IMG/VR virus record: IMGVR_UViG_2693429642_000022
Coordinates: 1-5,325 of that record
Strand: one strand, 5' to 3'
Source of the DNA: a virus
Taxonomy: Duplodnaviria > Heunggongvirae > Uroviricota > Caudoviricetes
DNA length: 5,325 bases
Under the pieces are notes generated by a model. That model ran no database searches. It saw only the letters and a list, made by a program, of their open reading frames with translations, and was not told where the DNA came from. The number at the start of each line of letters is the position of its first letter. The first letter of the stretch is position 1. Of this stretch, positions 1 through 5,325 are shown piece by piece. Made by a program: the position numbers and the translations under genes.

Positions 1-151
1 AGAAGGGCAGTATGTCAGCAGTATTTTGCTGTGCGAAAACATCTATCCGGTACGCCAGGAACTCTATTTTGGCATGGTGGTGAATCGTGAAAGCCAGCGG
101 GTCACGTTTATTGTCAGCCCGGAAGGTGGTGTGGAAATTGAAAAAGTCGCC
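1..151 (+). pseudogene. 3'-truncated fragment of a succinyl-CoA synthetase beta subunit (SucC)-like ATP-grasp gene, entering the window from the left
   Basis: Seen: the plus frame is open from base 2 and translates [50 protein letters not shown]. Recalled: this closely parallels the E. coli SucC segment [31 protein letters not shown]. Seen: the resemblance stops at base 151, where the endolysin stop codon sits on the other strand; the ORF-track frame then runs on to 226 as antisense of the endolysin 3' end. Only about 70 percent nucleotide identity to E. coli sucC is estimated, so this is a divergent homologue or paralogue. Confidence 0.5.
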
Positions 152-685
152 TTATCTGTCAATTCCCCAGCACGCCAGCGCACTCTCCTGGTCACGACGG
201 GATACCTGACCGTAACAGTTATTTGAGCGAATACGGCAGTCTCTGCCACCGTCCTTAATCCACCAGCGAATCGCCTCGCATGCTCCCCTGCGATCACCAG
301 CATTAATTCGTCTGTAAAACGTCGACGGGAAACACTTACCGGGACCAATGTTGTACGGACAGAATGACGCGATCCCCGCTTTCTGGGGTTCGGTCAGCGG
401 CACTCTGATGTTTTTCTCCACCCACGCCAGCGCTTTATCACGCTCAATGGCGTTAACCTGGTCGCATTTTTCCTTCGACAACTTCATGCCCGGAACGACA
501 GGTTTACTATCCACCAGGATGGCACCGCGGCAGATGGTCCAGATACCCGCGCCATCACGGTATGCCGTGGTGTGGTTACCTTCCTTTTCATCCAGAAACT
601 GGTCGAGGATTTCAGGCGCAGGCGCACCTGCGGCAATCAGCGCCAGAACGGCAGCCGACAGGCCGTATTTGATTTTGGTGTTCAT
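152..685 (-). CDS. R: SAR endolysin (phage-21 R-type, T4-lysozyme-like muramidase), 177 aa
   Basis: Seen: 177-aa ORF with a weakly hydrophobic Gly/Ala-rich N-terminal segment [16 protein letters not shown], as in a signal-anchor-release domain, followed by the catalytic triad spacing E-x8-D-x5-T ([16 protein letters not shown]). Recalled: near full-length resemblance to the E. coli Qin prophage lysozyme RrrQ/YdfQ. Seen: no Cys inside the SAR segment, which is R21-like, not P1 Lyz-like. No Shine-Dalgarno is evident upstream. Confidence 0.9.
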
Positions 686-735
686 GGATATTTATCAGGG
701 TTTATCGATTTCAAATCCCTGGATATGTTAAGTCT

Positions 736-1080
736 TCAGGCCAGCGGTGGAGTCTTCAGAGAACCAGTAATTATTCCCGGTAGTTTTCCTCTGTAGGTTA
801 TCAACACATCCTGCGCCTCTAAAATTACGGGGCGCTTTTCCGGCAACGGACCATCCCCTTCACATAACCCGGCAGCAACATCCATGAAAAACTGCTTCGC
901 CTGCTTTTTCGCCTCAGCTTCGTAAAACTCCAGCGTGGCATCTTCAGTACGGTCAAGACTAATCGCCACATCTGGCAACAACAGTGACGGATACCCACCA
1001 ATTTCCAGTGCCACAGTAACAGTAATCTTATTCGGGTAATTATTTATCCCTTTAACAACCAGTTCGTATTTTTTCTTCAT
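736..1080 (-). CDS. ydfR: DUF1327-family protein (YdfR-like), 114 aa, between holin and endolysin
   Basis: Seen: ORF begins 4 nt after the holin stop with a GGGGAGAG Shine-Dalgarno embedded in the holin 3' end. Recalled: sequence (MKKKYELV...EIGGYPSLLLPDVAISLDRTEDA...FFMDVAA...RPVILE..DVLITYRG) and position match the YdfR/DUF1327 proteins of Qin-type lysis cassettes. Confidence 0.75.
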   Translation of the reverse strand: MKKKYELVVKGINNYPNKITVTVALEIGGYPSLLLPDVAISLDRTEDATLEFYEAEAKKQAKQFFMDVAAGLCEGDGPLPEKRPVILEAQDVLITYRGKLPGIITGSLKTPPLA

Positions 1081-1084
1081 CGCT

Positions 1085-1300
1085 TTACTCTCCCCGCGCC
1101 GCCTTACGACGGTCCTCTCTGATTTTGAAATACAGGTTAGTCAGATATGTCAGCAGCCCAAACAACAGACTCCCCAGCACGCCTATTGCCGCCCACTGAG
1201 ACGGGGAAACCCTGTCCAGCAACTGCAGGAACCAGTAGCCCGTTCCCACCGCTGACGTGGTGTATGACACACCTGTTGTGATTTTTTCCATCTGGTACAT
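1085..1300 (-). CDS. S: Class II holin of the phage-21 S type (pinholin), 71 aa with dual-start motif
   Basis: Seen: [71 protein letters not shown] has two hydrophobic segments and a basic C-terminus; a second Met at codon 4 (start at 1291) gives the two-start arrangement; GGGAGA Shine-Dalgarno 6 nt upstream of Met1. Recalled: near-identical over the C-terminal two thirds to phage 21 S (S21-71 antiholin / S21-68 holin). Confidence 0.9.
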
Positions 1301-1375
1301 ACCCCGTCTCCCGTACTCGGAAGCTCACAACAACAAAAGGGCCACCAGCTCTTTACTGATGACCCTGACTCACCG

Positions 1376-1666
1376 TTACAGCATTGTGCCCGATTCTGGC
1401 TGTGTGTCTGTCATATCCGTCACCGGTGGCTCCGGCTGAATATCACCATTTTCCGTGGTGACATCTTCCGCCTGTGGTTCCGGAAGCAGTTCCGGGGATG
1501 GTTCCGGCTGTGCACCAAGCAATTCATCCAGAATTGAATCCACTTCTGCATCAAGACGCGCCTCAAGGTTCTGCCGAAGTTGCTGTTTCAGTGCGCTCCG
1601 GACTTCTTCAGAGCGCAGGACTTCCTTCACTGCCTCAGCAGTGACCAGCGATTTTATTTCTGACAT
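1376..1666 (-). CDS. Hypothetical strongly acidic protein, 96 aa: helical N-terminal half plus Pro/Glu-rich acidic tail
   Basis: Seen: internal ATG of the 154-aa track ORF, 26 nt downstream of the membrane-peptide stop. The product MSEIKSLVTAEAVKEVLRSEEVRSALKQQLRQNLEARLDAEVDSILDELLGAQPEPSPELLPEPQAEDVTTENGDIQPEPPVTDMTDTQPESGTML has about 22 D/E against 7 K/R. Weak Shine-Dalgarno, so translation may be coupled to the upstream ORF. No family recognised. Confidence 0.5.
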   Translation of the reverse strand: MSEIKSLVTAEAVKEVLRSEEVRSALKQQLRQNLEARLDAEVDSILDELLGAQPEPSPELLPEPQAEDVTTENGDIQPEPPVTDMTDTQPESGTML

Positions 1667-1691
1667 AGGATTTTCTCGTTGAAAGGGGTTA

Positions 1692-1886
1692 TTAAGAAGG
1701 TTGTTCCGGAATGAGTGGGGCTTCTGTTTTTGCTCCGGCTGACTGACTGGCGCTGATTTTCTCTGCGGCCCTTTTATCAATCTGCCTGCGCCAGAAATCG
1801 CGCACTGCCCTGTACCCACCCGAAAGAAGATACAGCACACAGACCGCCGTACAGAAGTACAGCATCACCTGATGAACAAATGTCAT
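1692..1886 (-). CDS. Hypothetical small single-pass membrane protein, 64 aa
   Basis: Seen: MTFVHQVMLYFCTAVCVLYLLSGGYRAVRDFWRRQIDKRAAEKISASQSAGAKTEAPLIPEQPS has one hydrophobic helix followed by a basic juxtamembrane stretch and a polar tail. Weak purine-rich ribosome-binding site (AAGAAA). It overlaps, in another frame, the N-terminal extension of the 154-aa track ORF. Confidence 0.4.
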   Translation of the reverse strand: MTFVHQVMLYFCTAVCVLYLLSGGYRAVRDFWRRQIDKRAAEKISASQSAGAKTEAPLIPEQPS

Positions 1887-1982
1887 AGTTTCTTACCGTT
1901 ATGGTTGACAATGAGAACTGTTTTCATTTAAAAACCGATATACGAAAGCATCTTTTCTTTACATTCTCCATTGGGATTACCT

Positions 1983-2019
1983 CCGCCAGCTTCCGTTCCT
2001 GCCGCTGGCGGCTTTTTTT
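1983..2019 (+). terminator. Plus-strand intrinsic terminator-like hairpin with T7 run, immediately 3' of the esterase gene
   Basis: Seen: stem 1983-1990 (ccgccagc) pairs with 2004-2011 (gctggcgg), 13-nt loop, then TTTTTTT at 2013-2019. On the minus strand the hairpin is preceded by an A-run and not followed by a U-run, so it is oriented for plus-strand RNA. Confidence 0.5.
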
Positions 2020-2024
2020 GCCGG

Positions 2025-4013
2025 TTATGATGATGCCCGGCTTTCGTTAACTTTGACTGTGACCGTATCAAGCAGTACCGGATACGTCGCTTTTGCCCCC
2101 GTGATATCTGTCAGCGTCAGCGTATCTGCTGTAAAGCCATCATTTGTCCACATCACAAGGTCAAACGCCGTCTGCTCTGTACCATCAATCACCGGAACGA
2201 CTCTTTCGCTGTTATTTCCCGCAAAGCGGAAAACAACCGTATGCCAGTTATGGTCAAACGCACCAAATGTACCCAGTTGTGCATTCGACGTGCCCTTGTG
2301 GTGCATAAGATTCAGATTTGATGCATCCGTCTGAAGGAAGAATGATGCCAGCATACTGTTTGCTGCCGCGCCTGACGCCCACTGCGACACCGGCCAGTAG
2401 AGACCAAAGACAAACTGTCCGTTCACCAGTTCGCTTCCATCCGGAATTTTGAACCGTACGGCAATTTCACCCCCCTTGCTGAGAAGATTTTTTGCCTCCT
2501 CCACTGCAACAGTACGGAACATTTTCCAGGACGTCAGTTTACCGGGCTGTTTTTCCAGTCGCAGCGCTTTCCGTCCACCGTCATCAGTCACAGTGCCTTT
2601 GCCACCGGCAGCCCCCCACTGCTGCTCTGTCCATACACCATTTCCACTGTTCGCATCATATTCAGCCACCGTCCTGGTACTGCTCACGGCCTCATCATGA
2701 CCAGTACCAGCAACACCGCCATCCTGCGGTTTCTCAACACCCGGTACCCCCGGACTGACATCATCACCGGGAGTTGTACCACCCAACTGCGGTGCGCTCT
2801 GCCCGGTAAGGAACGATAATGTCCGCCCGGCGTACTGCAAAATGGCACCTGCCAGGCGGTCTGAAACAATGCCTCTTCGCGCCCATGAACTGAAGTGCGT
2901 TTTACGATCGGCTGACGTCCAGTTACTGGCAGTGCGTGACGCAGCACCATAGTATCCCGCCGGGATAATGTCCGGATCTTCTGACGGCTCGTTTGTCGGC
3001 ACATTCACACCATGCTCATCCGTCATCAACGGCACAAAGTGAATATTCTGCGCAGCTTTGCCTTTATACCCACCGTAAACCGCCTCATACGGCGCTGCAT
3101 ACCTTTCCTTCCAGTAGTACGTGGTATCACCGCAAATCCACGGGACGCTGGCCGTTGTCCCGCCAGTACACTGCTCTGCCACATCTGCCAGTTCCGTACG
3201 GAACTGATTTACCATGGCAAGGAAAAGCGCATTGTGTTCTGCATGTCTCCCCGAACTGACATCTTTTTCTCCCTGCATCCAAATCACTGATAACAGCACG
3301 TTCTTCGGATTTTTCTTCAGGGCCGCACGGGTTCTGCTGACCAGGTCATAATACAGCGGTTTATCCGCCCCCCACAGGGACGAGCCTGCGGTCGCTCCCG
3401 ACGCTGCGTTAAACGCCCCCTCGGCCCCCGCAGTAAATCCCGAATCGCCACGGCCACATGGAACAAGAAGGATACCCGCATTCGCAGGCATAAACGGCAG
3501 CAGCTTTTTGGCAACATGCAGAGCATGCCCCACACAACCGTACTGCCCTTTATTAAGGTCCGCTTCAGGATGATTCAGGTTACTCATATCCTGCACATCA
3601 TGCAGACAGTGGTCTGCCGGAATGATGTCGTTATATTTACAGGCGGCACCACCCGGCGTCACCGTACTGCGACGCGCCAGCTGTTTAATACGCGGGTCCG
3701 GACGGTCATATGTCTCCGGCAGCGGCAGCCCTTCCCCAAAAGACATTGAGTTTGACTGCCCCGCCAGAACAACAACAAAGTAATACTCCGGTTCGCTGGT
3801 GGTGCTGATAACTGTGCCTTCTCCATCCGACGGCTTCACCACCACAGGTGTGGTGACATCACCTTCCGCCGCAATGGCCTGCATCAGGGTATAAGGCGTG
3901 ATGGCGACAGGGCTGCCAAATGGCTGCCACCCCTCCTTCAGTTTTTGTGTCAGTCGCTCCGCAAGGTCTGACGGCGACGCCGCCCTGACCACATCGTAGT
4001 GTTTAAATGTCAT
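2025..4013 (-). CDS. nanS-p: Prophage-type sialate O-acetylesterase (NanS-p-like): N-terminal DUF1737 domain, SASA/SGNH esterase domain, Gly/Pro/Thr-rich linker, C-terminal beta-rich domain; 662 aa
   Basis: Seen: 662-aa ORF with strong Shine-Dalgarno GGGAGGA; GQSNS motif in VVLAGQSNSMSFGEG. Recalled: GQSN is the nucleophile block of SASA-family esterases, the N-terminus MTFKHYDVV... matches DUF1737, and the architecture and position upstream of the lysis cassette match nanS-p morons of EHEC lambdoid prophages such as 933W. Confidence 0.85.
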   Translation of the reverse strand: MTFKHYDVVRAASPSDLAERLTQKLKEGWQPFGSPVAITPYTLMQAIAAEGDVTTPVVVKPSDGEGTVISTTSEPEYYFVVVLAGQSNSMSFGEGLPLPETYDRPDPRIKQLARRSTVTPGGAACKYNDIIPADHCLHDVQDMSNLNHPEADLNKGQYGCVGHALHVAKKLLPFMPANAGILLVPCGRGDSGFTAGAEGAFNAASGATAGSSLWGADKPLYYDLVSRTRAALKKNPKNVLLSVIWMQGEKDVSSGRHAEHNALFLAMVNQFRTELADVAEQCTGGTTASVPWICGDTTYYWKERYAAPYEAVYGGYKGKAAQNIHFVPLMTDEHGVNVPTNEPSEDPDIIPAGYYGAASRTASNWTSADRKTHFSSWARRGIVSDRLAGAILQYAGRTLSFLTGQSAPQLGGTTPGDDVSPGVPGVEKPQDGGVAGTGHDEAVSSTRTVAEYDANSGNGVWTEQQWGAAGGKGTVTDDGGRKALRLEKQPGKLTSWKMFRTVAVEEAKNLLSKGGEIAVRFKIPDGSELVNGQFVFGLYWPVSQWASGAAANSMLASFFLQTDASNLNLMHHKGTSNAQLGTFGAFDHNWHTVVFRFAGNNSERVVPVIDGTEQTAFDLVMWTNDGFTADTLTLTDITGAKATYPVLLDTVTVKVNESRASS

Positions 4014-4115
4014 GAATCCTCCCGGTCGGGATAATGTTGTGAGTCAGATAAGGAGCGAGCTGAAGTCCGGAAGTTACAGGACAATGGCAGGAGGAAGACT
4101 ACAGCCCGCAATACG

Positions 4116-4140
4116 AAAAAGGCCGCGCAGTTGCGCAGCC
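4116..4140 (-). terminator. Minus-strand intrinsic terminator
   Basis: Seen: minus-strand RNA ggcugcgcaacugcgcggcc forms an 8-bp GC-rich stem (one G-U) with a 4-nt loop (4121-4140), followed by UUUUU (4120-4116). Confidence 0.6.
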
Positions 4141-4195
4141 TTATGAATTCTGGTTAAAATCCATTCGATTATAAAAATGTATATCTCATGCTGTT

Positions 4196-4220
4196 GCCCG
4201 AACCCACTCGGGCTTTTTTT
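4196..4220 (+). terminator. Plus-strand intrinsic terminator, convergent with the minus-strand hairpin at 4221-4251
   Basis: Seen: gcccga (4196-4201) / acccac loop / tcgggc (4208-4213), followed by TTTTTTT (4214-4220). Confidence 0.55.
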
Positions 4221-4251
4221 GCCCACAAGAAAGCCCCTCCGGAGAGGGGCT
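4221..4251 (-). terminator. Minus-strand terminator-like hairpin, conserved element of repeat unit A
   Basis: Seen: perfect 8-bp stem agcccctc/gaggggct with 4-nt loop (4232-4251), followed on the minus strand by UUUCUUGUG (4231-4221). Confidence 0.5.
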
Positions 4252-4480
4252 AAAGCCGCGTATCTGTATCATCATGCACATGGTGCCGGGTGCCTCCCGG
4301 TGAGTTCAGCCCGGTGCCACTAAACCCGCGTCATTCTCGTTTTGATAATCAGAGATTATACCGTCACCAGTCGCCCCTCCGCTCAGGGGGATTCACCATG
4401 CGAAATTTTTTTAACAAATGCCCAGTCTGACAGGCAACTGTCAACTTACTGAATTGTGAGCAACATAGCATTTAACGGGG
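4224..4480. repeat. Repeat unit A of a diverged tandem non-coding element (~255 bp, period ~485 bp)
   Basis: Seen: shares four conserved blocks with unit B in the same order: cacaRgaaagcccctccggagaggggct; gccgggtgcctcccggtgagttcag; ccagtcgc..gcccctccgcNcagggggattcaccatgc; ttttaacaaa..cagtcaac..ctgaattgtgag..aacggg. The stretches between blocks have diverged. Confidence 0.7.
4355..4360 (-). promoter_or_regulatory. Candidate sigma-70 -10 hexamer (TATAAT, minus strand) inside unit A; no convincing -35
   Basis: Seen: plus-strand attata at 4355-4360 is a perfect TATAAT on the minus strand; the -35 position reads gcggag, a poor match. A transcript from here would end at the 4221-4251 hairpin after about 110 nt. 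Unit B lacks this hexamer. Confidence 0.25.
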
Positions 4481-4496
4481 AACCTGTTTTCTGCAG

Positions 4497-4524
4497 TAAA
4501 AAGGCCCACCGGAGCGGATGGGCC
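4497..4524 (-). terminator. Minus-strand intrinsic terminator between repeat units
   Basis: Seen: ggccca (4503-4508) pairs with tgggcc (4519-4524), loop can pair further (cc/gg); followed on the minus strand by UUUUUA (4502-4497). Confidence 0.65.
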
Positions 4525-4710
4525 TAGAAGGATAGCGGTCATGTGATGCCGGTTTCCCGGTAACTCAGCACCGGTATCTGAGTCAACGTTTTCTCTACTG
4601 GGTCATTTCCGATACGCCCTGCCTGCTGACAGGCTTTCATCACATCTGAAAATATAGCACCCTGACTGATACTGTAGTACCTAAGGTTCCAGAAACTGTG
4701 ATGTATCCGG

Positions 4711-4738
4711 CACAGAAAAGCCCCTCCGGAGAGGGGCT
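4711..4738 (-). terminator. Minus-strand terminator-like hairpin, conserved element of repeat unit B
   Basis: Seen: same 8-bp stem / 4-nt loop hairpin (4719-4738), followed on the minus strand by UUUUCUGUG (4718-4711). Confidence 0.45.
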
Positions 4739-4964
4739 GGAGAGTGGCGCTATGTGCCATTGCATGATGCCGGGTGCCTCCCGGTGAGTTCAGTATCAGC
4801 ACCTGAACCCGCACAGAAAGGATAAGGGTCGGTGACAAAACACCAGTCGCTGATTGCCCCTCCGCACAGGGGGATTCACCATGCCAGTTTCTTTTAACAA
4901 ACTCCCCGCAAACCAGACAACAGTCAACCGCCTGAATTGTGAGGTATTTAAAAATTTCAACGGG
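4711..4964. repeat. Repeat unit B of the diverged tandem non-coding element
   Basis: Seen: same four conserved blocks as unit A, offset by 483-487 bp; the hairpin agcccctccggagaggggct is identical in both units. Confidence 0.7.
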
Positions 4965-5053
4965 TAACTGATACCCTGCTAATCGCCTGATGCTTTCTTT
5001 TTCAGCAACGGGAAAGCAACAACCACCACACCCACCAGCCGCCCATTTACCAC

Positions 5054-5081
5054 AAATAAAAAAGCCTTCAGGACTGAAGGC
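5054..5081 (-). terminator. Minus-strand intrinsic terminator overlapping the stop codon of the small wHTH ORF
   Basis: Seen: gccttca (5064-5070) pairs with tgaaggc (5075-5081) around a 4-nt loop; followed on the minus strand by UUUUUUAUUU (5063-5054). Confidence 0.65.
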
Positions 5082-5247
5082 GTCTGTAACAACCGAACTG
5101 ATAGTCTGCCAGCCCCGCCATAACAAGCTGGGTCAGTATTAACTGGCAGCGTTCACGTGAAAGGTAAGTATTCTGCGCAATCTCCCCGACTGTCGCCGGT
5201 TCGGTGGCACTTAATTCATTAAACACCACTCTGGCGGTTTCGGTCAT
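5068..5247 (-). CDS. Possible small winged-helix DNA-binding protein (FaeA/PapI-like fold), 59 aa
   Basis: Seen: ATG at 5247 directly after an in-frame stop; product MTETARVVFNELSATEPATVGEIAQNTYLSRERCQLILTQLVMAGLADYQFGCYRRLQS; codon usage looks coding; stop codon lies inside the 5054-5081 terminator. The ribosome-binding site is poor (AGGA only 1 nt from the ATG) and the ORF is below the 60-aa track cutoff. Inference: the pattern hydrophobic-x-EIA-x-LSR-x-ILxxL-x-G resembles small wHTH regulators. Confidence 0.35.
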   Translation of the reverse strand: MTETARVVFNELSATEPATVGEIAQNTYLSRERCQLILTQLVMAGLADYQFGCYRRLQS

Positions 5248-5325
5248 ATCCTACTGTTTTAGCATGTCTTTTTCCATTTTCTGGTTAACGTAACATACCA
5301 ATAACTCTTGTCGGAAAAGCCAGCA

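Follow-up and report, generated by a model that had tools for sequence, protein, structure and literature searches.

A DUF1378-DUF826 gene pair linked to the esterase gene nanS-p in lambdoid and Mu-like prophages, with a possible role in tuning lysis or release

The window analysed here is the whole 5,325-nucleotide (nt) stretch formed by positions 1 to 5,325 of the IMG/VR virus record IMGVR_UViG_2693429642_000022 (Caudoviricetes), and the subject of the analysis is a pair of small open reading frames (ORFs), ORF-A and ORF-B, that lie between the esterase gene nanS-p and the holin gene S and belong to the Pfam families DUF1378 and DUF826 (DUF, domain of unknown function), respectively. All genes of the window are on the minus strand. 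The features considered are the following, with protein lengths in amino acids (aa):

4013..2025, minus strand: nanS-p, 662 aa, with DUF1737, SASA and DUF6645 domains (Pfam)
1905..2019, plus strand: antisense small-RNA-like unit (promoter motif, body, GC stem, T run)
1886..1692, minus strand: ORF-A, the DUF1378-family gene, 64 aa, ATG start, TAA stop
1666..1376, minus strand: ORF-B, the DUF826-family gene, 96 aa, ATG start, TAA stop
1366..1338, minus strand: terminator-like hairpin, from a terminator scan
1323..1308, minus strand: second hairpin, covering the Shine-Dalgarno sequence of S
1300..1085, minus strand: S, an S21-type class II holin (pinholin), 71 aa, Pfam PF04971 at E=9e-33
1080..736, minus strand: DUF1327/YdfR-family gene, 114 aa
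685..152, minus strand: lysozyme (endolysin), 177 aa, with an N-terminus of the signal-anchor-release (SAR) type

Intervals of 138, 25 and 75 nt separate the nanS-p stop from ORF-A, ORF-A from ORF-B, and ORF-B from the holin ATG, respectively. The holin S has a Met1/Met4 dual start, and two Lys residues precede the SAR domain of the endolysin. The ORF listing gives ORF-B as 154 aa with an upstream GTG start; the 96-aa form starting at 1666 was adopted because homologues and RefSeq annotation agree on it. The DUF826 reading frame (1376-1840, minus strand) continues without a stop codon for 198 nt 5' of the ATG, which accounts for the database versions of 134-154 aa such as the 148-aa L0106 of phage 933W.

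The two ORFs are genuine, conserved genes, since their Pfam scores lie far above the gathering cut-offs, their ratios of nonsynonymous to synonymous substitution rates (dN/dS) are 0.12-0.22 and the same order is found in more than 100 independent loci. ORF-A matched PF07125 (DUF1378) with an E-value of 4.5e-35 and 120.1 bits against a gathering cut-off of 25, its residues 1-59 covering all positions (1-59) of the 59-position model, and ORF-B matched PF05696 (DUF826) over residues 1-57 with an E-value of 1.9e-28 and 98.8 bits against a cut-off of 25. The two proteins also matched phrog_494 and phrog_311, respectively, both labelled 'unknown function'. From at least 30 distinct alleles, dN/dS was 0.17 for DUF1378 and 0.12 for the DUF826 core (residues 1-52), with similar values inside the Mu-like lineage described below, and all the divergent forms, from Mu-like phages and siphophages, exceed the Pfam thresholds.

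The window proteins are 98-100% identical to database entries. A 724-nt stretch with both genes is 99.9% identical to an Escherichia coli chromosome on which RefSeq annotates exactly these two genes, and it matches 306 phage records, including 933W (L0106/Orf25), VT2-Sakai (H0119/H0120 = ECs1210/ECs1211) and Shiga toxin (Stx) phages of the Stx1, Stx2a and Stx2c types. Among 5426 complete E. coli genomes, 1006 contain a match to this stretch, in a median of 2 copies and a maximum of 7. Phage 933W and Sakai Sp5 likewise carry the pair between nanS-p and S. Protein searches returned Escherichia and Shigella entries only, titled 'DUF1378 family protein' or 'DUF826 domain-containing protein'. In profile surveys of species, DUF1378 matched just Cedecea neteri and Mixta tenebrionis, and DUF826 had no match in 185,579 species representatives. 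Among 1.8 billion representative proteins, an exhaustive hidden Markov model search with DUF826 gave no more than 63 clusters at E<=0.001; nearly all are of about 140 aa or less, many being short fragments, and two long proteins are exceptions that appear to be spurious matches to repeats.

No function is given for either family in Pfam, PHROGs, NCBIfam (where neither protein had a match) or the literature. The only paper naming both families lists them as genes of unknown function located between nanS-p and S (PMC10462455), and literature under the locus tags L0106, H0119, H0120, ECs1210, Z1467 and ECs1212 held nothing relevant. Profile searches of both proteins against PDB sequences gave chance matches only (E >0.7), and Foldseek with the DUF826 model gave none. 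PADLOC-DB 2.0 showed no match for either window protein or for three of four divergent relatives, the fourth having one weak, chance-level match (LmuA, E=0.0099). As a side observation, phage records PV340545-PV340554 label the DUF826 gene 'head completion protein', for which no support was found and which is an apparent mis-annotation.

The DUF1378 protein has an isoelectric point (pI) of 9.2 and a net charge of +3. Its best 19-aa hydropathy window spans residues 3-21 (Kyte-Doolittle mean 1.91), and its transmembrane helix (LLYFCTAVCVLYLVSGGY) is conserved. No charged residue lies ahead of the hydrophobic stretch, which starts at residue 3, and six Arg/Lys fall within residues 26-39, a distribution that under the positive-inside rule predicts an N-out/C-in orientation. 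The AlphaFold2 model shows one helix over residues 2-50 followed by a loose tail. DUF1378 is thus predicted to be a single-pass inner-membrane protein with nearly no periplasmic part and a basic cytoplasmic helix. It is not a member of the S21 holin family, as it has one transmembrane helix and no PF04971 match, only the neighbouring gene at 1300..1085 matching that model.

The DUF826 protein carries 22 Asp/Glu against 7 Lys/Arg (net -15, pI 4.05). Its N-terminal half is free of Pro, and residues 53-96 hold 9 Pro and 11 Asp/Glu, this second half being also rich in Thr and Gln. In the AlphaFold2 model, helices at residues 10-17 and 20-49 have block-mean predicted local distance difference test (pLDDT) values of 83-98 (>90 at residues 21-50), and the tail (55-96) has pLDDT <50 and is predicted to be disordered. 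The alignment showed an invariant core motif, LEARLDAEVDxILDELLG, with a tail varying in length and sequence. Some full-length members consist of just 57-61 residues with no tail, and because the acidic Pro/Glu tail is variable and missing from these short members it is not the conserved functional part. Rare fusion entries join DUF1378 residues 1-37 to DUF826 through a one-base shift at GAT-AAA-AGG-G. A programmed frameshift joining the ORFs was rejected, as each fusion (P0032 and P0068) is an isolated entry located at a run of A, the offset between the frames is +1 in lambdoid and +2 in Mu-like loci, stop codons intervene in some alleles and the overlap shows no drop in synonymous variation (dS 0.33 vs 0.40); these entries look like errors or mutations.

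These results bear out the observations of a first-pass annotation made from the sequence alone and support its interpretation in part. It had described two tightly spaced small ORFs between nanS-p and the holin, here found to be a conserved linked module; a 64-aa product with a single transmembrane helix and a basic juxtamembrane stretch, as borne out by hydropathy and the six Arg/Lys; and a 96-aa product of about net -15 that is helical over its N-terminal half and ends in a tail rich in Pro and Glu, in line with its composition and the AlphaFold2 model. It had also called the module uncharacterised and recognised neither product, which is right as to function, none having been assigned, and wrong as to the families, both of which are long-standing in Pfam and appear in the annotation of hundreds of genomes, those of 933W and Sakai among them. 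Neither ORF matched a known lysis-accessory family in profile searches and both ORFs are intact and conserved in relatives, so that neither of the outcomes it had named as contrary to its proposal was encountered. Both families are already catalogued in Pfam as prophage genes and are ordinary for a Stx-type prophage. What is new here is the asymmetric dependence of DUF826, the linkage to nanS-p in both lambdoid and Mu-like phages, and the natural variants without the pair.

The two families were found in five genomic contexts:

Context A, lambdoid late operon: nanS-p, DUF1378, DUF826, S21 holin, in this order; invariant in >80 IMG/VR loci
Context B, Mu-like prophage: gin, nanS-p, DUF1378, DUF826, then further genes, com/mom or a Dcm-type methyltransferase, and the right end; 33 loci
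Context C, 43-kb siphophages: S21-like holin, SAR lysozyme, Rz/Rz1, DUF1378; 26 loci
Context D, Mu-like prophage: tail fibre, tail-fibre assembly, DUF826, DUF1378, Dam methyltransferase; 3 loci
Context E, Mu-like prophage, including those of Cedecea neteri and Mixta tenebrionis: as D, with DUF1378 alone; 6 loci (L155-L160)

The order of context A is kept even in alleles just 60% identical. In context B (loci L094-L127; for example L094 2594-5246 and L096 3020-7753) the holin is absent and nanS-p lacks the DUF1737 N-terminal domain, and the trio shows that the esterase cargo extends beyond lambdoid phages. Context C comprises phages BUCT708/709 and 24 IMG/VR contigs, with neither DUF826 nor nanS-p; DUF1378 is the last gene of the lysis cassette and its start overlaps the Rz stop (ATGA). 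BUCT708/709 were deposited as Stenotrophomonas phages, the cassette lying at 2721-4153 of L093 (OM816835) and also in L128-L151, and their lysozyme resembles the enterobacterial-type one of the window, with an estimated identity of about 70% over the N-terminal part. In context D the order of the pair is inverted and DUF826 is a tail-less 57-aa protein. Terminator-like hairpins follow the module in every context.

DUF826 depends on DUF1378 and not the reverse. In DUF826-seeded searches, DUF1378 adjoined in all 33 and all 80 loci where the flank exists, one DUF1378 being cut by an insertion. Phage records with DUF1378 numbered 309 and those with DUF826 307, the difference being BUCT708/709. Since DUF826 is never found without DUF1378, while DUF1378 occurs alone, DUF1378 is taken as the core partner. 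Co-occurrence, one of the points raised by the first-pass annotation, is therefore one-sided; as to which neighbour the pair moves with, the esterase or the holin, the answer is the esterase. In a pairwise test over 44 distinct lambdoid loci, DUF1378 divergence correlated with that of the DUF826 core (r=0.61) and of the nanS-p 3' end (r=0.35), and divergence of the DUF826 core and tail correlated with that of nanS-p (r=0.47-0.52). Independently of this test, the trio of context B moves without the holin. These comparisons indicate that the pair is inherited with the nanS-p esterase rather than with the holin.

The pair is also dispensable to the phage. The S21-type holin was found in 436 phage records and lacks the pair in about 130 of these. 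About 38 records with nanS-p have no pair, and the two inspected (Stx1_499 and 2B8) carry an S21-type holin with a purely non-coding interval between nanS-p and the holin; the Stx1_499 endolysin is of the same 177-aa SAR type as that of the window. As for the properties of a moron, variable presence among relatives was found (nanS-p in 347 phage records, the pair in 307-309). For a promoter and terminator of its own, there is a hairpin downstream, but one lies likewise ahead of S in phages without the pair, and no sense-strand sigma-70 promoter was detected for the pair.

The hairpin at 1366..1338, 10 nt past the DUF826 stop, consists of 12 base pairs and a U-rich tract. It is conserved across 12-14 variants of the sequence, and 3 of the 12 pairs show compensatory changes in both arms. 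As phages without the pair likewise have a sense-strand terminator directly upstream of S, the hairpin is unlikely to be specific to the pair and probably acts as an insulator of S; it would probably keep S silent until Q-modified polymerase arrives. The pair lies in the Q-dependent late operon, and the two genes themselves would be expected to be expressed late. Transcription of nanS-p rises by 1 to 2.4 logs on mitomycin C by quantitative PCR (PMC10462455). In a Sakai microarray, ECs1211 (DUF826) falls at the transition to stationary phase (PMC2241611), which implies that a DUF826 transcript is detectable in uninduced cultures, although spontaneous induction or cross-hybridisation among prophage copies may explain the signal.

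The 138-nt gap between nanS-p and DUF1378 contains a putative small RNA on the opposite strand. TTGACA-N18-TAAAAA at 1905-1934 (plus strand) is followed by about 50 nt that make up an unstructured body, a GC stem of 8 bp (CCGCCAGC/GCTGGCGG) and seven T. The T run closes the unit at 2019, and 5 nt separate it from the nanS-p stop. This promoter-terminator motif occurs once in the window, with zero expected by chance. Across contexts A and B it recurs, once per locus, in about 95 loci, with the same relative position and strand in spacers that are otherwise unrelated. It had no Rfam match, and among the translation start regions of the window no trans target stood out (strongest z-score -1.83). 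In prophages without the DUF pair, the esterase-holin gap holds the antisense RNAs PasA/PasC, Hfq-bound small RNAs of enteropathogenic E. coli that are EcOnc51/52 of enterohaemorrhagic E. coli (EHEC) Sakai (PMC8550237 table S6; preprint 10.64898/2026.05.13.724894); Sakai coordinates were checked, and the published PasA and PasC probes were located in Stx1_499 and 2B8. The window unit shares with PasA/PasC the gap after the esterase gene, the antisense orientation, a TTGACA promoter, a size near 80 nt and, beside the esterase stop, a terminator stem of the GCCAGC type followed by a T run; it differs in that the bodies do not align and that the PasA/PasC prophages have no DUF pair. It appears to be a positional analogue of PasA/PasC, and because such RNAs exist without DUF1378 it is unlikely to be a dedicated antitoxin.

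Elsewhere in the window, copies of the prophage small RNA STnc100, which is related to PasD according to a 2026 preprint, lie upstream of nanS-p, two of them strong (4221-4430 and 4708-4913, minus strand) and one weak (4496-4669, minus strand). An AsxR-like anti-sRNA (anti-small RNA) match at 4166-4218 (plus strand), on the strand opposite to STnc100, scored 63 bits, exactly the gathering score. The DUF1327/YdfR gene (736-1080, minus strand) begins 4 nt past the holin stop, ahead of the SAR endolysin gene, and is variable among relatives, being absent from, for example, 933W and forming longer C-terminal fusions elsewhere (263 aa in Stx1_499).

The reading that we favour, tentatively, is a non-essential late inner-membrane pair that may tune lysis or release in temperate phages of Enterobacterales. 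DUF1378 would be the core effector anchored in the inner membrane and DUF826 its dependent cytoplasmic partner, with an acidic helical core and a variable disordered tail. We infer that DUF826 docks onto the basic juxtamembrane helix of DUF1378, and likewise the topology, complex formation and effect on lysis; the complex would form a membrane-tethered anionic module on the cytoplasmic face of the inner membrane and modulate a membrane-dependent late event. Rather than serving defence, it could tune the proton-motive-force-sensitive lysis by pinholin and SAR endolysin in a releasin- or antiholin-like manner. The model for such a design is the releasin gp25 of phage Mu (DUF2730, PF10805), whose transmembrane domain is oriented N-out/C-in with just four residues in the periplasm and whose cytoplasmic domain is predominantly anionic; it helps SAR endolysins with basic N-termini to leave the membrane; the gp25-type DUF2730 gene is typical of Mu-like phages (PMC9239132). 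Tuning of lysis or release is favoured because of the gp25-like design, the two-Lys SAR endolysin and, in context C, the translational coupling of DUF1378 to the end of the pinholin, SAR endolysin and spanin genes; in the window the pair also lies directly upstream of S21. The lysis-timing role that the first-pass annotation had offered as its plainer option is possible.

Several results weigh against this reading. Stx1_499 and 2B8 indicate that the pair is not needed for lysis, and presence of the pair does not track endolysin type, since Stx1_499 has the same holin and the same SAR endolysin type without it; such natural phages also argue against the pair being required to free a SAR endolysin from the membrane. 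The divergence of the pair did not follow that of the holin (all r <=0.14), although low variation of the holin itself (mean p-distance 0.03) restricts what this correlation can show. In the Mu-like prophages the pair is at the far right end, either between gin and com/mom or after the tail-fibre assembly gene, unlike the lysis-gene position in phage Mu itself. DUF1378 gave no Pfam match to DUF2730/PF10805 at E<=1, and an hhalign comparison of its profile with gp25 gave a probability of 0.25%. More widely, no similarity of the pair to holins or to any characterised family was found in Pfam, PHROGs, NCBIfam, PADLOC, PDB sequences or, for the DUF826 model, Foldseek.

The linkage to nanS-p suggests an alternative in which the pair is a helper of the esterase, for example docking it at the membrane, timing its release or regulating it, the three genes forming one cargo cassette. 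nanS-p lies directly upstream in every lambdoid locus and in the 33 Mu-like loci between gin and com/mom in which no holin follows, the extent of divergence between the lambdoid and Mu-like backbones is alike for the three genes (about 50-65% identity), the divergence of the pair follows that of the nanS-p 3' end (r=0.35-0.52) and not that of the holin, and the N-terminus of NanS-p, as read from its sequence, has no signal-peptide-like hydrophobic stretch, so that the esterase would need an exit route. However, DUF1378, with or without DUF826, occurs without nanS-p in the siphophages and in two Mu-like contexts, nanS-p occurs without the pair in the records noted above, and the linkage may just reflect the positions of recombination joints. 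A helper role is on balance unlikely.

A further alternative is a host-directed role: DUF1378 could bind and inhibit a protein of the host inner membrane, for instance a transporter or a factor for phage DNA entry, leading to superinfection exclusion or a physiological change, with DUF826 as modulator. Small single-pass proteins such as SgrT, AcrZ, MgrB and HK97 gp15 often regulate larger membrane proteins. The pair is polymorphic for presence and absence in close relatives, occupies accessory slots in three unrelated architectures, near genes typical of conversion or anti-restriction (Mom, Dam or Dcm methyltransferases and an acyltransferase), is followed in all contexts by a terminator-like hairpin and has a narrow range of hosts (Escherichia/Shigella plus Cedecea and Mixta); the ECs1211 transcript in uninduced cultures (PMC2241611) fits as well. 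This is offset by the failure to detect a sense-strand promoter, by the position of DUF1378 inside the lysis cassette of the siphophages and by the absence of a PADLOC match, and the array signal possibly stems from the spontaneous induction or cross-hybridisation mentioned above. We regard such a role as unlikely, to about the same degree as that of an esterase helper.

A variant that combines the esterase linkage with the favoured reading is that the pair is a split releasin or antiholin analogue co-opted in a mobile nanS-p cassette, where it would tune the release of esterase and Shiga toxin independently of the lysis cassette. This is quite unlikely; if true, it would define a new class of lysis/release modulator in Stx phages.

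The size and shape of DUF1378, like those of prophage type I toxins (PMC2887945), together with the finding that DUF826 never occurs without it and the conserved antisense promoter-terminator unit just upstream of its start, could point to a toxin and antidote, with a membrane-damaging DUF1378, akin to a type I toxin or a holin, neutralised by DUF826 and perhaps by the antisense RNA in addiction or abortive infection. Yet DUF1378 is without DUF826 in two contexts, PasA/PasC lie in the corresponding gap of prophages without DUF1378, and the gene order is not fixed, DUF826 coming first in one Mu-like context, so that this explanation is doubtful at best. The defence or anti-defence and DNA-mimic interpretation of the first-pass annotation has fared worst: DUF826 as an anti-restriction or other anti-defence protein has in its favour the net charge of -15 and the DNA methyltransferase or Mom genes nearby in several contexts, but it is very improbable given that the acidic tail is predicted to be disordered, is hypervariable and is absent from the 57-61-aa members, that just about 50 residues are folded, that DUF826 is obligately paired with a membrane protein, that a position in the Q-dependent late operon is unsuited to function at DNA entry and that no Pfam, PADLOC, PDB-sequence or Foldseek match was found.

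In most Stx phages the pair lies between the Shiga-toxin/NanS-p cargo and the lysis switch, and about one in five complete E. coli genomes carries it. If, as in the favoured reading, the pair tunes the opening of the cell, the release of toxin and esterase in EHEC disease would be affected. If it has no measurable effect, it would be one more conserved phage protein of unknown function.

Compared with known systems, the window pair shows no difference from the members of the DUF1378 and DUF826 Pfam families and of PHROGs 494 and 311. Phages also encode small, non-essential adjusters of lysis timing near the holin gene, membrane-bound or cytoplasmic, such as T4 RI/RIII and P1 LydB. The pair resembles these antiholins as small accessory proteins encoded near a holin, but it has no Pfam or PHROGs relationship to them and is inherited with nanS-p. 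In the prophage type I toxins TxpA, YonT and BsrG a transmembrane helix at the N-terminus precedes a charged tail (PMC2887945); these and Hok-like toxins are like DUF1378 in their length of 48-64 aa, the helix with charged tail, the prophage location and the antisense RNA nearby, and unlike it in that antisense units of the kind found here also occur without the peptide gene (PasA/PasC) and that DUF1378 has a protein partner, DUF826, instead.

The releasin gp25 differs from the pair in several respects. In the pair the acidity is on a separate polypeptide, DUF826 (-15), and the cytoplasmic part of DUF1378 is basic. A releasin gene lies at most about five genes downstream of the endolysin gene, a position found only in the siphophages, the window pair lying upstream of the holin. 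The pair is moreover dispensable and is also present in Mu-like prophages. The likenesses are an N-terminal transmembrane domain of N-out/C-in orientation, predicted in the case of the pair, with a scant periplasmic part, anionic cytoplasmic material that in the pair would be held at the membrane, and an occurrence in phages with SAR endolysins. Should the pair indeed tune lysis, it would be a second, unrelated example of the releasin/antiholin idea.

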